Positions 2,482 through 15,572 of a DNA stretch of 64,000 nucleotides are shown here, piece after piece. The position numbers were made by a program, and so were the translations under genes. Location: assembly GCA_035556555.1 (NCBI GenBank), contig DATMES010000022.1, forward strand, positions 7,577 to 71,576, given 5' to 3'. The notes beneath the pieces were generated by a model. That model made no database searches, was not told where the DNA came from, and was given only the letters and a program-made list of their open reading frames with translations. The stretch comes from Frankiaceae bacterium (GTDB lineage: Bacteria; Actinomycetota; Actinomycetes; BP-191). Numbering within the stretch: position 1 is the stretch's first letter; every line of letters starts with the position of its first letter.

Positions 2482-3384
2482 CTAGAGGATCGCGATGGCG
2501 CGGGGCTCGGGGAGGCCGTTGACGAGCTCGTGCCAGCGGACGCCGTTGTCGTTGCTGACGTAGAGCGACCCGCCGGGCGCGGCGCAGACGACCTGCTCGT
2601 CCCAGGCCGACAGGCAGTACGTGTCGACGTTGCCGGCGAAGTACTCCGGCAGCCCCAGCCGTACGCGGTCGAACACCGAGTCCTCCAGCGCGCGCCGGTA
2701 CAGCGCGGCCTCCGCGCCGTCGGGCCCGGCCGACACCGACAGCACGACGTGGTCGCCGGTGACGGCGATGGCGCGGCAGTACGTGTGCGGCATGCCGCGC
2801 GACTCGACCTCCCACGTCTCGCCGGCGTCCGTCGACAGCGCCATGCCCTGCGCCGTCGCGGCGAGGACCGTCGAGGCGTAGTCGGGAACGGTCACGACCT
2901 GGTGCACGTCCCACTCGATCTCGCCGGACGGCAGCCACGTGTCGCCCGCGTCGAACGACCGCACGATGCCGCCCACGTGCACCGACGCGAACAGCGCGTC
3001 GTCCTCGTCGACGTCGAGCGACCGTACGTCCGGCGGCCCGCCCCACGGCGTGTGCCACTTGTCGCGTCCCTCGACGTCGTCGAACGCCTTCACCGGCATC
3101 AGCTCGCCGCCGCGCACCAGCCACAGGTTGGCGCCCGCGGTGCCGGCCCAGACGTCGTCGCCGTTGACGAGGACGCAGGTGATCGCGCCGCGCGTCGGCG
3201 GCAGCGTCTCGAACTCCGCGGCCCCGTCGTCGTCGACGTTCCACAACGTCCCGTCGGCCGCGAGCGCGACCGCGCCGTCGTCCGCCGCCACCACGTGCCG
3301 GAACCCGCCCTCGACGAGCTGGCGCGAGGCGCCCTCGTCGTCCACGTAGTACAGGCCGTCGTCCGTCGCCACCACGAAGCTCAT
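2482..3384 (-). CDS. BNR/Asp-box repeat protein (sialidase-like beta-propeller), cytoplasmic
   Basis: Three SxDxGxTW Asp-box motifs (SFDAGDTW, STDAGETW, SNDNGVRW); no signal peptide; ATG overlaps upstream GNAT stop (ATGA). Confidence 0.7.
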   Translation of the reverse strand: MSFVVATDDGLYYVDDEGASRQLVEGGFRHVVAADDGAVALAADGTLWNVDDDGAAEFETLPPTRGAITCVLVNGDDVWAGTAGANLWLVRGGELMPVKAFDDVEGRDKWHTPWGGPPDVRSLDVDEDDALFASVHVGGIVRSFDAGDTWLPSGEIEWDVHQVVTVPDYASTVLAATAQGMALSTDAGETWEVESRGMPHTYCRAIAVTGDHVVLSVSAGPDGAEAALYRRALEDSVFDRVRLGLPEYFAGNVDTYCLSAWDEQVVCAAPGGSLYVSNDNGVRWHELVNGLPEPRAIAIL

Positions 3385-5715: not shown

Positions 5716-7599
5716 ATGGAGCGGACCGGGGGACTGCCGTACGTCCCCGCCCTGGACGGCGTGCGCGGCGTGGCCGTGCTCGCCGTGCTGCTGTTCCACG
5801 GCGGCGTCTCGTGGCTGCCCGGCGGCTTCCTCGGGGTGGACGCGTTCTTCGTGCTGTCGGGGTACCTCATCACTGGGTTGCTCCTCGCGGGCGTGCCGCT
5901 CCGGACCTTCTGGTCCCGGCGCGTGCGGCGGCTGCTGCCTGCCCTCGCCTTGCTCGTGCTCGTCGTCCTGTGTCTCGGCTCCGTGCTCAACGCCGCACCC
6001 CGCGACGCGCTGGGCGCCTTGACCTACCTCTCCAACTGGCGGTCGTACGCCACCGGCGGCGGCTACTTCGCGTCGTTCGCCGATCCGTCGGCGTTCAAGC
6101 ACACGTGGTCGCTGGCCGTGGAGGCGCAGTTCTACGTCGTCTGGCCGCTCCTCGTGGTCTGCGTCTGCCGCCGCGCGCGCGGGCCCGTGCTCGCGGCTGC
6201 AGGCGTGGGGGCGCTCGTGTCGGCGGCGGCGATGGCGGCGTCGTTCCGGCCCGGCGGCGACCCCGCGCGGGCCTACTACGGCACCGACACCCGCATCCAG
6301 GCCCTCCTCGTCGGCGCCGCGCTGGCCGTCGTGCTCGCGCGCGCAGCGGTGCCCCGCGCGATCGGCTGGTCGGGCCTCGCGGGCGTGGGGCTGACGCTGT
6401 GGGTCTGGCACACCGCGTCCGGCACCTCCGACGACCTCTACGGCGGCGGCTTCCTGCTAGCGGCCGTCGCCACCGCGGCCGTCATCGCCTCGGTCGTGCT
6501 GCTGCCGTCCGGGCCGCTGGCCCGCGCGCTGTCCGTACGCCCCCTGCGCGCGGTCGGCATCGTGTCGTATGGCGTCTACCTCTGGCACTGGCCGGTGTTC
6601 CTGCTGCTCACCGGCGCGCGCACCGGCCTGAGCGGCTTCTGGCTCCTCGCGCTGCGGTTCGCGGCGACCGCCGCCTGCACCGCCGTCTCCTGGTACGCCG
6701 TCGAGGTCCCCGCCCGCACCTGGTCGCCCCGGCTGCCGCCGCTGCACGTACGGCGGGTGGCGCTGGCGGGCGGCACGGCGTTCGCGCTGGCGGCGTTCCT
6801 CGCGCTGTCGCCCGGCACGCCGCCGGGCCCGCCATCCGCGGCGGCTGACCCGCTACCCACGGCGTCACCCACGGCCGCGCGGCGCCCCGCCCGGGCGCCC
6901 ACGACGACCGCGCCGACGACACCCGCGCCCACCCGGGCCGCCGGCGGGCCGACGCGGGTGCTGGTCCTCGGCGACTCGGTGGCGCAGACGCTCGCGGCCG
7001 GGCTGCCCGACGGCGACGGGTTCGACGTCGTCAACGCCGCCGCCCTCGGCTGCGGCCTCGTCACCGGCGGGTACCGCTACTTCGGCGGCCAGTACGACGA
7101 CCCGCCGCACTGCGTCCAGTGGCCGCAGACCTGGGGCGCGGCCGTGGCACGGCACCAGCCGGACCTCGTCGCGGTGCTCGTCGGCCGGTGGGAGGTCATG
7201 GACCGCCGCCTCGACGGGGAGTGGCGGCGGCTGGGGGACGCGGCGTTCGACGCGTACGTCACCGCCCAGCTCGACCGCGCCGTCGACGTGGTCTCCGCCG
7301 GCGGCACCAAGGTCGCGCTGGTCACGGCGCCGTACTACCTCCGCGGCGAACGCCCCGACGGCGGCCGCTTCCCCGAGGACGACCCCGCCCGCGTCGACCG
7401 CTTCAACGCCCTGCTCCGCGACGTCGCGGCGAGACGCGGCGTCGCCGTTGTGGAGCTCGGGGCGGCGCTCGCGCCGGAGGGGACGTTCACGCGGCACATC
7501 AACGGCACCCTCGTCCGCTACGACGGCGTCCACATCAGCGGCGCCGGCGCGCGCATGCTGCGCCCCTGGCTCCTCCGCCAGCTCACCGCCGCCCTCTGA
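5716..7599 (+). CDS. Acyltransferase-3 (OafA/OatA-like) membrane domain fused to a C-terminal SGNH hydrolase domain
   Basis: N-terminal 10-TM acyltransferase-3 region (FHGGVSWLPGGFLGVDAFFVLSGYLIT); Pro/Thr linker; SGNH block VLVLGDSVA. Confidence 0.85.
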   Translation: MERTGGLPYVPALDGVRGVAVLAVLLFHGGVSWLPGGFLGVDAFFVLSGYLITGLLLAGVPLRTFWSRRVRRLLPALALLVLVVLCLGSVLNAAPRDALGALTYLSNWRSYATGGGYFASFADPSAFKHTWSLAVEAQFYVVWPLLVVCVCRRARGPVLAAAGVGALVSAAAMAASFRPGGDPARAYYGTDTRIQALLVGAALAVVLARAAVPRAIGWSGLAGVGLTLWVWHTASGTSDDLYGGGFLLAAVATAAVIASVVLLPSGPLARALSVRPLRAVGIVSYGVYLWHWPVFLLLTGARTGLSGFWLLALRFAATAACTAVSWYAVEVPARTWSPRLPPLHVRRVALAGGTAFALAAFLALSPGTPPGPPSAAADPLPTASPTAARRPARAPTTTAPTTPAPTRAAGGPTRVLVLGDSVAQTLAAGLPDGDGFDVVNAAALGCGLVTGGYRYFGGQYDDPPHCVQWPQTWGAAVARHQPDLVAVLVGRWEVMDRRLDGEWRRLGDAAFDAYVTAQLDRAVDVVSAGGTKVALVTAPYYLRGERPDGGRFPEDDPARVDRFNALLRDVAARRGVAVVELGAALAPEGTFTRHINGTLVRYDGVHISGAGARMLRPWLLRQLTAAL

Positions 7600-7632
7600 C
7601 CGTCCCCCGGCCCCCCGTCGGCCCGCACCCCG

Positions 7633-7662
7633 CCCCCGTCGCACCCGCACCCGCACCCGCAC
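7633..7662. repeat. Short (GCACCC)n hexamer tandem repeat in a convergent intergenic region
   Basis: cacccgcacccgcacccgcacc read directly. Confidence 0.5.
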
Positions 7663-7672
7663 CTCTGATCAT

Positions 7673-8533
7673 TTAGCGGCGGACGCGGTCCAGGAAGTCG
7701 CGCACGACCTCGAGGTAGCGGTCCTGCTCCTCGACGAACGTCATGTGCCCGCTCCGCTCGAACACCACCAGCTCCGCCCCCGGCACCCCCTCCGCGATCG
7801 CCTCGGCGGCCTCCGGGGGGCACGTACGGTCGTGCCGACCGGCCAGAACCAGCACCGGGTGCTCGACCGAGCCCAGAGCGGCCTCGACCTCGATGCCGCC
7901 GTACGACGCCGTCGCGAAGTGCCGCAGCACGTCCGGCGACCCGGCGAGCCCGGCGGTGCGGGCGTTGTAGTCGGCGATGCGCGGGTCGCGCGGGTCGGCG
8001 AAGTGCCACGGCGCCTGGTCCGCGAGGAGGCGTTCGACCTCCTCGGCGGACGTCACCGACGCCTCGGCCTCCCACGACGCCGTCACCTGGTCGCGCAGCT
8101 CCTCCGGCTCGAACGCCGCCAGCCGGTCGCCCAGCCCGTCGAGGTAGCGGGCCGACGGCAGCCCGCTCGACACGATCGTCCCCGCCGGCTCCCCGGCGAA
8201 GTCGACGGCGTGCTGCAGGGCGACGAACGCGCCGTACGAGTGCCCGAGGACGGCGTACGGGCCGTAGCCGAGCGCGGCGCCCAGCGCCTGCACGTCGGCG
8301 GCCATCTGCTGCAGCGTCCACGTCTCGGGCGGGCACGATTCGGAACGCCCCTGCGCCCGCTGGTCCACGAGCACCAGCCGGTAGTGGTCGGTCAGCGGGT
8401 CGAGGTAGTCGGCGAACATGTGGTGGTCGAGCCCGGGGCCGCCGTGCAGCACCAGCACGGGGAACCCCTCGCCGCGCTCCACGACGTACAGCTTCGTGTC
8501 CCCCACCGAGACGTAACGCTCGTTCTGGTCCAT
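7673..8533 (-). CDS. Alpha/beta hydrolase (proline iminopeptidase-like)
   Basis: HGGPG oxyanion motif and GHSYG nucleophile elbow; 286 aa. Confidence 0.8.
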   Translation of the reverse strand: MDQNERYVSVGDTKLYVVERGEGFPVLVLHGGPGLDHHMFADYLDPLTDHYRLVLVDQRAQGRSESCPPETWTLQQMAADVQALGAALGYGPYAVLGHSYGAFVALQHAVDFAGEPAGTIVSSGLPSARYLDGLGDRLAAFEPEELRDQVTASWEAEASVTSAEEVERLLADQAPWHFADPRDPRIADYNARTAGLAGSPDVLRHFATASYGGIEVEAALGSVEHPVLVLAGRHDRTCPPEAAEAIAEGVPGAELVVFERSGHMTFVEEQDRYLEVVRDFLDRVRR

Positions 8534-8542
8534 CCGGGCATC

Positions 8543-8968
8543 ATGCCTGCCATGGACCCGACCAACCTGCTCGCCGGCCCGCCGCCGACCCTGCTGCCCG
8601 CCGACAACCCCGCCGCCGACGACGCGCTCGCCCGCGGCGACGATCCGAAGACCGTCGCGGCGGCGCACCCGACGCACCTCGCGGCGTGGGCGGCGCTGGC
8701 GGACGCGGCGTACGAGAGCGGGGAGGCCGTCGCGTCGTACGCCTACGCCCGCGTCGGCTACCACCGCGGCCTCGACGCGCTGCGGCGCAACGGCTGGAAG
8801 GGCCACGGCCCCGTGCCGTGGAGCCACGAACCCAACCGCGGCTTCCTCCGCGCCCTCCACGCGCTCGGCAGGGCGGCCGGCGCCATCGGGGAGAACGACG
8901 AGGCGGAACGGTGCGCGACGTTCCTCCGCGACTGCGACCCGGCGGCCGCGGCGGCGCTCCGGACCTAG
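8543..8968 (+). CDS. Conserved actinobacterial hypothetical protein (DUF3151-like)
   Basis: 141 aa; conserved HPTHLAAWAALADAAYESGE...YAYARVGYHRGLDALRRNGWKG region. Confidence 0.55.
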   Translation: MPAMDPTNLLAGPPPTLLPADNPAADDALARGDDPKTVAAAHPTHLAAWAALADAAYESGEAVASYAYARVGYHRGLDALRRNGWKGHGPVPWSHEPNRGFLRALHALGRAAGAIGENDEAERCATFLRDCDPAAAAALRT

Positions 8969-9445: not shown

Positions 9446-10729
9446 ATGCCCGCCGTCGTCATCGTCGGGGCACAGTGGGGAGACGAGGGGAAGGGCAAGG
9501 CCACCGACCTGCTCGGTGACCGGCTCGACTACGTCGTCCGCTACAACGGCGGCAACAACGCCGGCCACACCGTCGTCATCGGCAGCGAGAAGTACGCGCT
9601 GCACCTGCTCCCCACCGGCATCCTCACGCCGACGCTCGTGCCGGTCATCGGCAACGGCGTCGTCGTCGACCTCGGCGTCCTCTTCGAGGAGATCGACCTG
9701 CTGGACGCGCGCGGCGTCGACACCTCGCGGCTGCTCATCAGCGCCAACGCGCACGTCATCACGCCGTACCACCGCACCATGGACAAGGTGGTCGAGAGGT
9801 TCCTCGGCAACGCCAAGCTCGGCACCACCGGCCGCGGGATCGGGCCCGCGTACGCCGACAAGATGTCCCGCGTCGGGGTGCGGGTGCAGGACCTGTTCGA
9901 CGAGAAGATCCTGCGGCAGAAGGTCGACGGCGCGCTCAAGGCCAAGAACCAGCTGCTCACCAAGGTCTACAACCGCAAGGCCATCGAGACCGACGCGGTC
10001 GTGGACGAGCTGCTGACGTACGCCGACCGCCTCCAGCCGCTCGTCGCCGACACCGCCCTGCTGCTGCACCACGCGCTGCTCGACGGCAAGAACGTCCTGC
10101 TCGAAGGCGGCCAGGCCACCATGCTCGACGTCGACCACGGGACGTATCCGTTCGTCACGTCGTCCAACCCGACCACCGGCGGCGCCTGCACCGGCTCCGG
10201 CATCGCGCCGCGGCACCTCACGCGCGCGATCGGCGTGCTCAAGGCGTACACGACGCGGGTCGGCGAGGGGCCGTTCCCGACCGAGCTGAACGACGAGTGG
10301 GGCACGCTGCTGCGCGAGAACGGCGGCGAGTTCGGCACCACCACGGGGCGGCCACGTCGGTGCGGGTGGTTCGACGCCGTCATCGCCCGCTACGCCGCGC
10401 GCATCAACGGCCTCACCGACTTCTTCCTCACCAAGCTCGACGTGCTCTCCGGCATCGAGCGCATCCCCGTCTGCGTCGGCTACCGCGTCGGCGGCACGGT
10501 CTTCGACGAGATGCCGGTGTCGCAGTCGGACTTCCACCACGCCGAGCCGGTGTACGAAGAGCTCCCCGGCTGGGACGACGACATCACCGGCGCAACGACG
10601 TTCGAGGACCTGCCGAAGAACGCTCAGGCGTACGTCAAGGCGCTGGAGGAGATGTCCGGCGCGCCCATCAGCGCCATCGGCGTCGGCCCCGGCCGTACGC
10701 AGACGGTGGTCGTCAGGGACTTGGTCTAA
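9446..10729 (+). CDS. purA: Adenylosuccinate synthetase
   Basis: GGAGGAG RBS; N-terminal [10 protein letters not shown]-loop; full-length colinear PurA. Confidence 0.95.
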
Positions 10730-12102
10730 CCGAGGTACCCGCTCTTCCGGAGCGTGTCCTCCGCTGCCTCGGTGAGCGCCTCCAGCGCCGCGGCGATGAT
10801 CTCAGTGACGAGGGCGCTGATCTTGACGCGCGCCACTGTACGTAGCGTCGGCTCGACGTCGCGTACGGCGAACTCAGCTCGGCGACCCATCCCGGCGACG
10901 AGGAATGCGGGGCAGTCGTCGTCCGTGGCGATCAGCGTGACGATGCGGATCGCCCGCCGCGCGCCCGCGGGCGGATGCGACTCCGCGTTGATCTGAACGA
11001 TGCGGGGATCCGCAACAGACGACCGGTAGCCCGGCGCATCGAACCGTCCTTGACGGACGTCCACCGTGAGCGACACACCCACCGGTAGCGACAGCGCGGC
11101 TACCTGCTCGGACACTTCTGAGTGAACTGCGTCGAGCAGGCGGTTCGCCACGGCATCAAGCTGGTCGTGGCTGAGCCCGCCAACACCCGTGACGAGGTCC
11201 CTGAGTCGCGCCAACGACCCTGCCTGGTCAGCCTGCGCGCCGGCTCGGACCGTGAGGACAGCAAGATCCACGGTCTCGATGACGCGCTCGACAACGAACG
11301 AGACGAACCTGCGTAGGTCACCGGAGTCGGCGGCCGCTAGGCAGTCGAGGTACTCGTCGCGGTCCTCGCGCAGCAGCATGAACGGCACGCGCAGCGCGCG
11401 GTACAGCGGAACCGACGCGAGCGCGCGGGAGACGCGGCCGTTCCCGTCGGCGAACGGGTGGATCGCCACGAACGAGTAATGCAGGTACGCCGCCTGCACC
11501 ACCGGATGAGCGGCGAGATACGACTCCGACGACAGCGACGCCACGAGCCGCGCCATCTCCGGCGCGACCATGTCCGGCGGCGCGTAGTGGTGGATCTGAC
11601 CCGTCGCGAGACTGGTCGGGTTGTTGGGCAGCGTCTTGTACTGCCCCTTCGGTAGCGGCTGCTCCTGCGGCCCCACCTCGGTGTGTACGACGTACGTGTC
11701 CTGGCTGCGGCAGAGCATCACGTGGAGCTCGCGAATCACGTGCTCGGTGACCGGCCGCGACTCGGCCACGAGGTCGAGCACCCACTCGTACGCCTCGATC
11801 TGGTCCTTGATGATCGCCGCGGCGTTGGGGCCTCGCTCGTTCGCCGCCGCCTCCCAGCCCGCGGCCTCGATGGCGACGGTGCGGGTGAAGCCACGATCGG
11901 TCGTGTAGAGCCCTTCGATGGCTCCGGTGTCGGTGCCCGCGTACCGCATCGCCGTCTTCACGGCGTGCTCGCGCGCCTCCTCGGTCGCCTCGGCGCGAGC
12001 CTGTTCGAGGAGCGCGGCGTACTGGTCGTACGTCGTCGGGTCGAACGGCACCGCTGTCCACGCCGAGATGTCGGGGAACGGCTGGTATCCCTCGTCCGCC
12101 AC
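10726..12102 (-). CDS. Fic/DOC-family protein, class II (N-terminal inhibitory helix), with an uncharacterised ~200-aa C-terminal domain
   Basis: Canonical Fic motif [12 protein letters not shown]; N-terminal TGAIEG matches the (S/T)xxxE(G/N) alpha-inh motif; stop overlaps purA stop. Confidence 0.85.
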
Positions 12103-12223
12103 GCGGCGCCACCTCCGCTCCCGAGTCTAGAGACGGCGAACGGCGCCGGTGCCGAAGCCGGCGCCGCTCGCGGACGTCCGTTGCGAGTGCCGGCCGAAAC
12201 GGCACCCGGGGGTGGGGCCGCGT

Positions 12224-12436
12224 CTAGCAGAAGACCGTTGTCCACATCGAGCCGCCCCAGCACAGGGGCGCCTCGACGGTGACGGGCGTGCAGCCGCCTT
12301 CCGGCCGCGGGACGCAGTCCTGGTAGAGCACGACGTTGCGGTAGCAGGCCTCGGGGGCCACGCACTCGGCGTGCGCGGCGCCGCCGAGGAACACCGCGGA
12401 CAGCAGGGCGCCGACAGCGAGCAGGCGTCTGACCAT
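12224..12436 (-). CDS. Small secreted cysteine-rich peptide (70 aa precursor; 47-aa mature peptide with 6 Cys)
   Basis: Signal peptide MVRRLLAVGALLSAVFLGGAAHA|E; GGAG RBS; GC3 near 100%. Confidence 0.45.
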   Translation of the reverse strand: MVRRLLAVGALLSAVFLGGAAHAECVAPEACYRNVVLYQDCVPRPEGGCTPVTVEAPLCWGGSMWTTVFC

Positions 12437-12483
12437 GGCTGGCTCCGTTCGGTAGGGAATGCCCGGACGTGGGCGATGGCAGG

Positions 12484-13722
12484 ATGCCGCCCGTGAGAGT
12501 TCTTGTCATCGGCAACGGCGCCCGCGAGCACGCCCTCTGCCTCGCCCTGCGCCGCGACCCCGCGGTACGCCACCTCGTCTGCGCCCCAGGCAACGCCGGC
12601 ACCGCGCAGGTCGCCGAGACCCGCCACGTCGATCCCCTCGACGGCGACGCCGTCGCCGACCTCGCCGACGCCGTGGACGCCGACCTCACGGTCATCGGCC
12701 CCGAGGCGCCGCTGGTCGCCGGCGTCGCGGATGCCGTACGCGCCCGCGGCCGCGCCTGCTTCGGCCCCTCCGCCGAGGCGGCCCAGCTGGAGGGCAGCAA
12801 GGCGTTCGCCAAGGACGTCATGGCGCGCGCCGGCGTCCCGACGGCGGGCTACGCCGTCTGCGAGACCGGCGACGAGGTGGAGGCCGCGCTGGACGAGTAC
12901 GAGCCGCCGTACGTCGTCAAGGACGACGGCCTGGCCGGCGGCAAGGGCGTCGTCGTCACCACGGACCGCGCCGCCGCCGCCGAGCACGCCCGCGGCAAGC
13001 GGGTCGTGATCGAGGAGTACCTGGACGGCCCCGAGGTGAGCCTGTTCGGTATCACGGATGGCACGACGGTGCTGCCGCTGCAGCCCGCGCAGGACTTCAA
13101 GCGCATCGGCGACGGCGACACCGGCCCGAACACCGGCGGCATGGGCGCCTACTCGCCGCTCCCCTGGGCCGACCCCGGCCTGACCGACGAGGTCACGAGA
13201 ACGGTCCTCCAGCCGACGATCGACGAGATGCGCCGCAGGGGAACGCCGTTCCAGGGCCTGCTCTACGCCGGTCTCGCGATCACGAAGAACGGCCCGAAGG
13301 TCATCGAGTTCAACGCCCGCTTCGGCGACCCCGAGACGCAGGTCGTCCTCGCCCGCCTGAAGACCCCGCTGGCGCAGCTGCTCCACCAGGCCGCCACCGG
13401 CAGCCTCGCAGGCACCACCCTGGACTGGGACGACCAGGCAGCCGTCACGGTCGTCATGGCCGCGCTCGGCTACCCGGGCAAGCCCACCACGGGCCAGCCG
13501 ATCGACGGGCTGACCGAAGCCGCCAAGGCAGCAGACGTCCTCCACGCCGGCACCCGCCTCGAGGACGGCAAGGTCCTCACGAACGGCGGCCGGGTCCTCT
13601 CGGTCACGGCCACGGGCTCCGACCTGAACACCGCAAGAACGAAGGCGTACGAGGCCGTCGGCCGGATCTCCTTCCCCGGCGCCCAGTGGCGCACGGACAT
13701 CGCGGCGACAGCCGCCGGTTAG
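12484..13722 (+). CDS. purD: Phosphoribosylamine-glycine ligase
   Basis: RVLVIGNGAREHAL N-terminus; ATP-grasp fold; colinear PurD. Confidence 0.95.
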   Translation: MPPVRVLVIGNGAREHALCLALRRDPAVRHLVCAPGNAGTAQVAETRHVDPLDGDAVADLADAVDADLTVIGPEAPLVAGVADAVRARGRACFGPSAEAAQLEGSKAFAKDVMARAGVPTAGYAVCETGDEVEAALDEYEPPYVVKDDGLAGGKGVVVTTDRAAAAEHARGKRVVIEEYLDGPEVSLFGITDGTTVLPLQPAQDFKRIGDGDTGPNTGGMGAYSPLPWADPGLTDEVTRTVLQPTIDEMRRRGTPFQGLLYAGLAITKNGPKVIEFNARFGDPETQVVLARLKTPLAQLLHQAATGSLAGTTLDWDDQAAVTVVMAALGYPGKPTTGQPIDGLTEAAKAADVLHAGTRLEDGKVLTNGGRVLSVTATGSDLNTARTKAYEAVGRISFPGAQWRTDIAATAAG

Positions 13723-13788
13723 GCGCCACGCCGACGGTGCGAGAGAATGACCCCACCGCGCCCGCGAACATCCAGGGGAGAGAACGAC

Positions 13789-14274
13789 GTGCCCGACGAG
13801 AGCCCGAAGGTCGCCATCGTCTACGGCTCGCTGAGCGACGCCAACGTGATGAACCAGGCCGGAGCGATGCTGGAACGCTTCGGCATCGCGTACGACGAGT
13901 GCTCCATCTCCGCGCACCGCGCCCCGCGCGCGCTCGCCGACTGGATGGCCGAGCTCGAGCCGCGCGGCTACGAGGTCGTCATCGCCGGCGCCGGCATGAG
14001 CGCCGCGCTGCCGGGCGTCGTTGCGGCGCACACGGTCCTGCCGGTCATCGGCGTCCCGATCAAGGGCGGCGCGCTCGACGGGCTCGACGCGCTGCTCGCC
14101 ATCAGCCAGATGCCGCCGGGCGTGCCGGTCGCCTGCGTCGGCCTGGACGCCGCGAAGAACGCCGCCGTCCTCGCCGTGCAGATCCTCGCCACCAACGACC
14201 CGGACCTGCGCGCCAAGCTCTGGAAGTTCAAGGACGACTTCGAGAGCGCCGCCACCGCCTCCCTCTCTCGATGA
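13789..14274 (+). CDS. purE: 5-(carboxyamino)imidazole ribonucleotide mutase (PurE)
   Basis: VAIVYGS.SD, SAHRAP, VIAGAGMSAALPG, PVIGVP; GGGGAGAGA RBS before the GTG. Confidence 0.85.
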   Translation: MPDESPKVAIVYGSLSDANVMNQAGAMLERFGIAYDECSISAHRAPRALADWMAELEPRGYEVVIAGAGMSAALPGVVAAHTVLPVIGVPIKGGALDGLDALLAISQMPPGVPVACVGLDAAKNAAVLAVQILATNDPDLRAKLWKFKDDFESAATASLSR

Positions 14275-15572
14275 TCGGGCGGTACACCCTCCCCGAGATG
14301 GGCCGGGTCTGGTCCGAGGCCCACAAGTACGAGCTCTGGTGCCAGGTCGAGACCCTCGTCCTGGAAGCCCACGCCGCGGCGGGCGTCGTCCCCGCCGACT
14401 GCGTCGAGCCTGTCAAGAACGCGCCGCCGCCCACCCCCGAGGCGGTCGACGAGATCGAGCAGGTGACGCAGCACGACGTCATCGCGTTCCTGTCGGCCTG
14501 GGCGGACAACACGACACCGCGCGAGGCGGCGGCGTACGTCCACTTCGGCATGACGAGCAGCGACCTGCTCGACACCGCGCTGGCGCTGCAGCTCACCGAC
14601 GCCACCGACATCCTGCTGGCCAAGGCCGACGCCCTCGTCGGCCACCTCCGCGGCCTGGGTCTCGCGCACCGTGACACGGTCAAGGTCGGCCGTACGCACG
14701 GTGTCCACGCCGAGCCCGACACGTTCGGCCACACGGTCGCGAACTTCGCGTTCGCCATGGCCCGCAGCCGCGACCGGCTCCGGCGCGCCCGCGAGGCCGT
14801 CGCTATCGCCAAGATCAGCGGCGCGGTGGGGACGTACTCCAACATCGACGACGACGTCGAGCGCCACGTCGCCGCGCAGCTCGGCCTGACCCCCGCCGAC
14901 GCCGCGACGCAGGTCGTGATCCGCGACGGCATCAGCGAGTGGGTCTCCGCGCTCGGCGTCATGGCGACGGTCTGCGAGGCCGTCGCGCTGGAGGTACGCC
15001 ACGGCCAGCGCACCGAGGTACGCGAGCTCGAGGAGCCGTTCAGGAAGGGCCAGAAGGGCTCCTCCGCGATGCCGCACAAGCGCAACCCGATCCTCTGCGA
15101 ACGCATCTGCGGTCTGGCCCGCGTCGTCCGCGCGCAGGTCGTCCCCGTCATGGAGGGCATCCCGCTCTGGCACGAGCGCGACATCAGCCACTCCTCCGTC
15201 GAGCGGATCGCGCTCCCCGACGCCGCGATCGGCACCGACTACCTGCTGCACCTCACGACCAAGCTCGTCACCGGCCTCACCGTCGACGCCGAGCGGATGC
15301 GCGCCAACCTCGACGCGACCGGCGGCCTCATCTACACGAGCGCCGTCCTGCTGGAGCTGGTGGAGGCAGGCCTCTCCCGCGAGGACGCGTACGCCGTCAC
15401 GCAGGCCGCGGCGATGGAGACGTGGCAGAGCGGGGTGCCGTTCCGCGAGACGCTGCGCAAGCACCCCGAGGCCGACGCCCTCACCGACGAACGCCTCGAC
15501 GAGGTCTGCCGCCCCGACCGCTACCTCTCGCGCCTCGGCCCGGTGTTCGACCGGCTGGCGTCGCTGGCCTGA
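14271..15572 (+). CDS. purB: Adenylosuccinate lyase
   Basis: ATGA overlap with the purE stop; fumarate-lyase signature GSSAMPHKRNP. Confidence 0.95.
   Translation: MIGRYTLPEMGRVWSEAHKYELWCQVETLVLEAHAAAGVVPADCVEPVKNAPPPTPEAVDEIEQVTQHDVIAFLSAWADNTTPREAAAYVHFGMTSSDLLDTALALQLTDATDILLAKADALVGHLRGLGLAHRDTVKVGRTHGVHAEPDTFGHTVANFAFAMARSRDRLRRAREAVAIAKISGAVGTYSNIDDDVERHVAAQLGLTPADAATQVVIRDGISEWVSALGVMATVCEAVALEVRHGQRTEVRELEEPFRKGQKGSSAMPHKRNPILCERICGLARVVRAQVVPVMEGIPLWHERDISHSSVERIALPDAAIGTDYLLHLTTKLVTGLTVDAERMRANLDATGGLIYTSAVLLELVEAGLSREDAYAVTQAAAMETWQSGVPFRETLRKHPEADALTDERLDEVCRPDRYLSRLGPVFDRLASLA

Follow-up and report, generated by a model that had tools for sequence, protein, structure and literature searches.

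We analysed a stretch of 64,000 nucleotides from a Frankiaceae metagenome-assembled genome deposited at NCBI (GCA_035556555.1; contig DATMES010000022.1, positions 7,577–71,576; hereafter the window), in which a complete gene on the minus strand (10726–12102) encodes a Fic protein annotated merely as a "Fic family protein" (HWL35958.1). The gene is a mosaic, in which a conserved Fic catalytic module gives way, at a fixed point, to a hypervariable domain that recombines. This is a new finding, and one that an earlier note on this DNA, drawn up from the letters of the sequence, had missed. Here we describe the two modules, the break between them and the genomic settings in which the gene and its homologues are found, and we weigh what the protein may do.

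Results

A Fic gene with a cis inhibitory motif

The open reading frame comprises 458 codons and a stop, begins with GTG, and has a GGAGG-like Shine-Dalgarno sequence about 9 nt 5' of the start. Its stop codon (TAG, 10726–10728) overlaps that of the convergent purA gene (TAA, 10727–10729), such that 2 nt are shared on opposite strands. At the equivalent junction the overlap is 4 nt in L082 and the two genes simply abut in L081; these two loci and L083 are related metagenomic loci with the same purD / Fic / purA arrangement, L082 being the nearest. In comparison with L082, the N-terminal half of the Fic gene is under strong purifying selection (ratio of nonsynonymous to synonymous divergence, dN/dS, about 0.04–0.15), and the reading frame is therefore neither a chance one nor a pseudogene.

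Judged by its sequence, the protein belongs to the Fic superfamily and has the hallmarks of class II. The Pfam Fic profile (PF02661) matches it with 63 bits against a cutoff of 24 (E = 4.9e-17), the nearest solved structures by sequence are human FICD (9e-20) and BT_2513, and the PADLOC SoFic model matches residues 36–289 (5.6e-28). The catalytic motif, H215–R226 (11425–11460, minus strand), reads H215-PFADGNGR-223 followed by VSR, in agreement with the Fic signature HxFx(D/E)GN(G/K)R, and has a mean column entropy of 0.21 bits across the family. More than 1000 homologues were found, most of them full-length at about 460 residues; the subfamily is common across Actinomycetota and also occurs in Acidobacteriota, Chloroflexota, Dormibacterota and Solirubrobacterales.

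Class II Fic proteins are defined by an inhibitory motif of the form (S/T)xxxE(G/N), and replacing its glutamate with glycine relieves the inhibition (PMC3667792). Here, an alignment of 70 full-length homologues (38–70% identical) and an AlphaFold2 model built from it (mean predicted local distance difference test, pLDDT, 94.5) point to T59-G-A-I-E63-G64 (11911–11928, minus strand), which lies in the same polypeptide, 152 residues N-terminal to H215. T59, A61, I62 and E63 are invariant in all 70 homologues, as are H215, P216, F217, D219, G220, G222 and R223, whereas G60, G64 and N221 are each conserved in more than 90%. In the model, TGAIEG sits at the C-terminal end of a predicted helix (residues 41–62) that is preceded by another (23–38). 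This is the order found in SoFic (Shewanella oneidensis SO_4266), in which a dimerisation helix (L28–L50) is followed by an inhibitory helix (Q54–E73) with SSEIEN at residues 69–74. Class II Fic structures superpose on the model over 246–267 residues, a span that necessarily takes in the N-terminal helices. Profile searches of the PDB stop short of the inhibitory helix and hence give no residue-level alignment of E63 with FICD E234 or SoFic E73; from the motif and the helix layout, E63 would be expected to lie over the ATP site and to contact the active site. Fic enzymes usually dock their targets on a beta-hairpin flap, and one is predicted at residues 136–149 (11656–11697, minus strand; strands 136–141 and 144–149 by DSSP in the AlphaFold2 model), with Y137, V139, T141, G144 and Q146 conserved in the family. 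The active-site motif, the inhibitory signature and the stop overlap with purA had all been proposed in the earlier note. The uninterrupted reading frame contains the first intact at residues 215–226, the alignment and the SoFic-like helix layout bear out the second, and the third is present in the sequence at 10726–10729.

A break in the Fic gene just behind the active site

Comparison with L082 divides the gene sharply in two. The flanks are 89–93% identical at the nucleotide level, with 98.6% amino acid identity for PurA, 95% for PurE and 89% for PurD (89–98.6% overall) and a synonymous divergence (dS) of 0.18–0.32, whereas the Fic proteins are just 67% identical. Codons 1–228 form a conserved N module (11419–12102, minus strand) that spans the N-terminal helices, the inhibitory helix, the flap and the catalytic motif. 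It has 95% amino acid identity to its counterpart, a third-position identity of 0.80 and a dS of 0.30–0.34 (codons 1–200) that matches that of the flanking purA, purD and purE. Codons 229–458, which encode the last Fic helices and the C-terminal domain (C module; 10729–11418, minus strand), have 35–59% amino acid identity, a third-position identity of 0.30 and a dS of at least 1 or saturated. A maximum chi-square test on third positions places the recombination breakpoint at about codon 228 (11416–11421), two codons 3' of the catalytic motif; the value at that codon (116.5) was reached in none of 1000 permutations, and a sliding window shows the same sudden drop. At the other end, nucleotide similarity to L082 returns at position 10728, in the purA stop, so that the swapped segment ends on the right at the overlap of the two stops (10726–10729). 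Comparisons with L081, L083, L090 and L092 gave an effect in the same direction.

We considered whether the third-position drop could be a by-product of amino acid change. This is excluded by fourfold-degenerate codons that specify the same amino acid in both genes, at which third-position identity falls from 0.76 in the N module to 0.35 in the C module (Fisher p = 1e-5).

The same decoupling is seen in the wider family. Among the 25 closest homologues, pairs that are nearest neighbours in the N module (80–95% identical) share 32–74% identity in the C module, or 32–58% if one pair is set aside. Most of these sequences have different nearest neighbours by the N and C modules, and the two sets of similarities are nearly uncorrelated (Spearman 0.17). 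Because synonymous sites are saturated, which accelerated evolution in place could not achieve by itself, the C-module alleles split long before the genomes that carry them and were introduced by recombination.

Base composition also changes along the gene. The G+C content of third codon positions (GC3) is 0.98 in purA, 0.95 in purD, 0.92 in the Fic N module and 0.81 in the Fic C module. In a separate observation on distant homologues (ORFs at about 6001–7380 of their loci), the GC3 of Fic was clearly below that of its neighbours in most loci (L001, L002, L004, L005, L008, L012, L013 and L014), with 0.78 against 0.95–0.97 in L001. The lower GC3 of Fic suggests either horizontal acquisition or low expression throughout the family.

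These results bear on a conservative explanation, in which the protein is a housekeeping, bifunctional AMPylase/deAMPylase of the FICD kind that tunes a conserved protein of the cell itself, for instance a chaperone, a translation factor or gyrase. Its C-terminal domain would then be a weakly constrained dimerisation or scaffold element, and the mosaic would have arisen as diverged strains recombined in the ordinary way, without selection for diversity. Such a scheme sits uneasily with a single, exact break inside the gene, between flanks with a dS of about 0.2–0.3 and a C module at saturation. The discordant phylogenies of the two modules over 25 relatives and the atypical GC3 of the C module also count against it, as do features of the genomic contexts described below. 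We consider this explanation, the main rival of the model that we favour below, unlikely but well worth keeping in view.

A well-defined C-terminal domain without known relatives

The C-terminal domain proper occupies approximately residues 288–458 (10729–11241, minus strand). Modelled alone from an alignment of 50 sequences, it is predicted with high confidence (pLDDT 96.6; predicted template modelling score, pTM, 0.88) to consist of two helices, an antiparallel sheet of five to six strands and a long C-terminal helix of 33 residues. The earlier note had found no recognisable motif downstream of the Fic core, and the searches agree with it. The last 170–200 residues match nothing in Pfam, NCBIfam or the sequences in the PDB, and neither Pfam nor NCBIfam holds a model for this domain. 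No Pfam family is matched consistently by the members of the 50-sequence alignment, and a profile search of all PDB sequences with this domain gave a best E value of only 0.1. A Foldseek search of the PDB with the model returned nothing at E ≤ 0.001, the best template modelling (TM) score being about 0.3. Alpha+beta two-layer sandwiches of the Frataxin/CyaY-like and FP-domain (Fbxo7, PI31) types are among the closest known systems. A Nitro_FeMo-Co match from Pfam (E = 0.014–0.033) falls below the cutoff and occurs in one of the 50 members, and we regard it as chance.

A search with the domain profile against 1.84 billion representative proteins (clusters at 50% identity) found 728. All matches inspected are Fic proteins of about 460–490 residues that end in this domain, or fragments of such proteins. 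It thus seems that the domain is confined to this Fic subfamily. Matches of 149–330 residues were considered as stand-alone copies of the domain and rejected, since these sequences begin within the Fic domain or the linker and are best read as fragments.

Variability within the domain is concentrated in its sheet, where column entropy reaches 3.0–3.3 bits in the beta strands, compared with 0.2–1.5 bits in the Fic core. The only conserved positions are G309, E314, D316, R321, P357, Y359, R360, R414 and P418. We also considered the "GY" C-terminal tail and a "GGL(S/T)H" loop as possible sites of auto-AMPylation or as pseudo-substrates, and rejected both because the Ser/Thr and the tail Tyr are not conserved family-wide.

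Genomic contexts of the homologues

In the window, the Fic gene is enclosed by a cluster of purine biosynthesis genes (purA, purD, purE and purB; 9476–15572), which in related loci extends to SAICAR synthase and purS. The purD / Fic / purA order is kept in the window, in L081, L082 and L083 and in the partial contigs L090–L092. This setting invites the idea that the Fic protein AMPylates or senses purine-pathway enzymes or nucleotides, and this would explain why the gene lies between purD and purA and why its stop overlaps that of purA. However, the purine setting (purA, Fic, purD, purE, purB) is limited to a Frankiaceae-like clade, and purA or purD lies within 6 kb of none of about 20 more distant full-length homologues. 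Moreover, what lies between purD and purA varies within this clade, with different sets of peptide genes or, where Fic is missing, other cargo. Conservation is far higher in the flanking pur genes than in Fic, and no riboswitch or other RNA motif was found, scans of 10.0–13.0 kb for promoters, terminators and Rfam families having given no match. A purine-linked regulator is therefore very improbable in our judgement. The adjacency to purA is lineage-specific synteny and not a functional link. The convergent purA and Fic genes have neither intergenic space nor a recognisable terminator between them, so their transcripts may run into each other's gene.

Elsewhere, the contexts are scattered and partly mobile, and no conserved partner gene was found across those examined. 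Serine recombinases adjoin the Fic homologue in L085, and a recombinase and a RepSA of the type found in actinomycete integrative and conjugative elements (AICEs) adjoin it in L086. VapBC lies beside it in L087, a Type ISP restriction enzyme in L015 and AbiEii in L020. A full-length homologue (42.6% identity over residues 2–432) is carried by Mycobacterium phage WST1 (L095; PV574450.2, 35961–37343). There it is the sole opposite-strand gene among 15 annotated in the 8-kb stretch examined. According to the notes in the phage record, most of its neighbours are 91–100% identical to a related phage, whereas the Fic gene is matched best by bacterial sequences and has no cited counterpart in the related phage. 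The phage gene looks like a recent acquisition from an actinobacterial host. The deposited annotation gives it 360 residues (L095 1078–2160) and may place the start too far downstream, since the tblastn match to the window protein begins 300 nt before it (L095 778). Copies on a phage, on an AICE-like element and beside toxin–antitoxin and restriction–modification genes are not what would be expected of the housekeeping enzyme considered above.

Predicted secreted peptides and the purD–purA gap

A second gene on the minus strand (12224–12436; HWL35959.1, hypothetical) lies in the gap between purD and purA. It encodes a peptide of 70 residues with a Sec signal peptide of the AXA type and six cysteines in the predicted mature part, and it lies 121 nt upstream of the Fic start within an insertion of 345 bp (12130–12474) relative to L081, L082 and L083 (blastn). 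Its family comprises nine clusters (64–77% identity, 70–97 residues), all from Frankiaceae-like metagenomes, that share six invariant cysteines and a conserved APLCWGGSMW; it has no match in Pfam, NCBIfam or PADLOC. Family members occur as three genes upstream of Fic in L090 (214–507, 537–788 and 932–1150), as one gene downstream of Fic in L092 (1637–1861) and, in L094, as a gene (3076–3294) accompanied by a 299-residue hypothetical protein and a ribbon-helix-helix protein in a gap that has no Fic. In L083, six tandem genes of 62–74 residues between Fic and purA (7414–8696) share an AXA-type signal peptide and four cysteines with common spacing. These form a second family of small, predicted secreted Cys-rich peptides, amplified in the same gap. 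The interval between purD and purA (10729–12474 in the window; L081–L083 and L090–L094) thus behaves as a site for variable cargo, which may be Fic alone, Fic with one to six peptide genes, or cargo without Fic. That the Fic gene is not present everywhere, and that this gap can carry other cargo instead (L094), also argues against a housekeeping role.

The earlier note had drawn attention to a small secreted Cys-rich peptide gene about 120 bp upstream of Fic, which is indeed present, and had asked whether the two genes occur together in relatives. They do so in part: peptides of the family adjoin Fic homologues in L090–L093, but they are absent from L081 and L082, vary in position and occur once without Fic (L094). 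This pattern is relevant to a further explanation, in which Fic and the adjacent peptide form a two-gene unit resembling a toxin–antitoxin system. The model for it is EcSofic, the E. coli homologue of SoFic, which has a reported small antitoxic neighbour (PMC12249575), the 47-residue AS1. A small reading frame on the same strand 121 nt upstream, and the presence of related peptides beside Fic in L090/L091 and L092/L093, are in its favour. Nevertheless, with its Sec signal and six conserved cysteines the peptide is expected to be exported and disulfide-bonded, whereas the Fic protein has no signal peptide. The absence of the peptide from the nearest relatives, L081 and L082, largely refutes the proposal, which also fails to account for a peptide that lies upstream or downstream in zero, one or three copies, for one that lies next to purA without Fic in L094, or for distant Fic homologues that lack such a neighbour. 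In addition, an inhibitory motif is already present in cis. We regard a peptide antitoxin as the least probable of the explanations considered here. The locus is likewise distinct from class I Fic toxin–antitoxin modules of the VbhT/VbhA type, since its motif is in cis and the small neighbour lacks (S/T)xxxE(G/N) and is missing from the closest relatives.

Discussion

By its sequence, this protein belongs among stand-alone class II Fic enzymes and would work most like SoFic, but with a different and exchangeable C-terminal domain. SoFic and EcSofic make up the PADLOC "SoFic" anti-phage system, and SoFic is reported to be a toxic, dimerisation-dependent anti-phage AMPylase whose toxicity is governed by its C-terminal domain (PMC12249575). 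SoFic AMPylates EF-Tu, and its inhibitory glutamate is used for deAMPylation (bioRxiv 10.64898/2026.07.09.737422). The two proteins differ in their C-terminal domains, a DNA-binding winged helix-turn-helix (wHTH; IPR048770) in SoFic and an unrelated alpha/beta sandwich in the window protein, and they superpose over only 267 residues. The window protein falls outside the SoFic equivalog family: it scores 35.7 bits against a cutoff of 550 for NF046030, with only residues 199–287 matched, and has no C-terminal winged-helix DNA-binding domain. We know of no report of a C module in SoFic that recombines and is hypervariable. Nor is the protein an orthologue of human FICD (HYPE), which has an N-terminal membrane anchor and tetratricopeptide repeats (TPRs) and no C-terminal domain. 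In the window protein there is no TPR or other non-Fic Pfam match, and the N-terminus consists of short helices only. BT_2513 (3cuc), in turn, is essentially a Fic domain alone. In the searchable literature we found no description of this subfamily, its C-terminal domain or its mosaic structure, nor of the M. marinum Fic structure 7cb8.

We favour a model, to which we assign a probability of roughly 0.45, in which the protein is a conflict effector similar to SoFic with an exchangeable sensor or specificity module. In this model, the gene would encode a cytoplasmic, stand-alone Fic enzyme whose N module (residues 1–228) provides a complete AMP-transferase site together with the inhibitory E63 on an N-terminal helix in cis. 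By analogy with FICD and SoFic, E63 would keep ATP in a non-productive pose and could also catalyse deAMPylation. On this analogy, the resting enzyme would be switched off for AMPylation, or would run as a deAMPylase. The C module (residues 229–458), made up of the last Fic helices and a family-specific alpha/beta sandwich with a hypervariable beta-sheet surface, behaves as an exchangeable cassette. Long-diverged alleles are swapped by homologous recombination, with one crossover in conserved sequence right after the catalytic motif and the second at the purA end. As a specificity or sensor element, the C-terminal domain might bind a variable protein ligand or change the oligomeric state, thereby lifting the glutamate brake, and the enzyme, once released, would AMPylate a conserved target in the cell that docks at the invariant flap. 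The logic would be that of the fused sensor and effector in abortive-infection or toxin systems of the SoFic type. We consider this the most economical reading because SoFic and EcSofic already show a stand-alone class II Fic protein acting as a toxic anti-phage effector.

A similar logic is found in fused toxin–antitoxin sensors of the CapRel(SJ46) type, in which a conserved N-terminal toxic enzyme is followed, at the C-terminus, by a regulatory domain that is highly variable and detects a phage protein. CapRel(SJ46) is a RelA/SpoT-like pyrophosphokinase and not a Fic enzyme, the brake here would be the N-terminal glutamate helix rather than the C-terminal domain, and sensing is here only proposed.

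Several observations weigh against a conflict effector. About two-thirds of the other contexts examined consist of unrelated housekeeping genes (for example, dnaG, phosphoenolpyruvate carboxykinase, scpA and an aminotransferase), and in the clade of the window the Fic gene lies between housekeeping purine genes rather than within a defence island. Copies in viruses and on plasmids are rare, amounting to one phage record, one IMG/VR contig (a provirus) and one plasmid. The score far below the SoFic equivalog threshold and the missing wHTH domain point the same way. Finally, the C-terminal domain could be a scaffold or dimerisation domain under weak constraint, which together with ordinary recombination would account for its high variability.

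The SoFic-like model can be carried further, to a hitherto unrecognised single-protein immune or conflict sensor in which a constant Fic AMPylase "warhead" is fused to an exchangeable sandwich whose hypervariable sheet directly recognises proteins of phages or other mobile elements. Binding of the ligand would free the cis glutamate and lead to AMPylation of a core host factor, and the swap point would be a built-in recombination joint that shuffles specificities. This stronger version is speculative, and we think it somewhat less likely than even the housekeeping enzyme discussed above; if true, it would be the first Fic system with polymorphic, recombining specificity modules.

In summary, what frees bacterial class II Fic enzymes from their inhibitory glutamate is still incompletely understood, and this subfamily offers a natural experiment on that question. 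The catalytic module is common to hundreds of alleles, and they differ from one another in a C-terminal domain that is exchangeable and has a well-defined structure. Should the domain prove to be a neutral scaffold, it would still give Pfam a family that it lacks, with 728 clusters (at 50% identity). Should it instead determine the trigger or the target, exchanging it between naturally occurring alleles would allow direct tests of how the enzyme is activated, and a new type of sensor domain might come to light in Actinomycetota and further soil phyla, in which defence systems are poorly charted.

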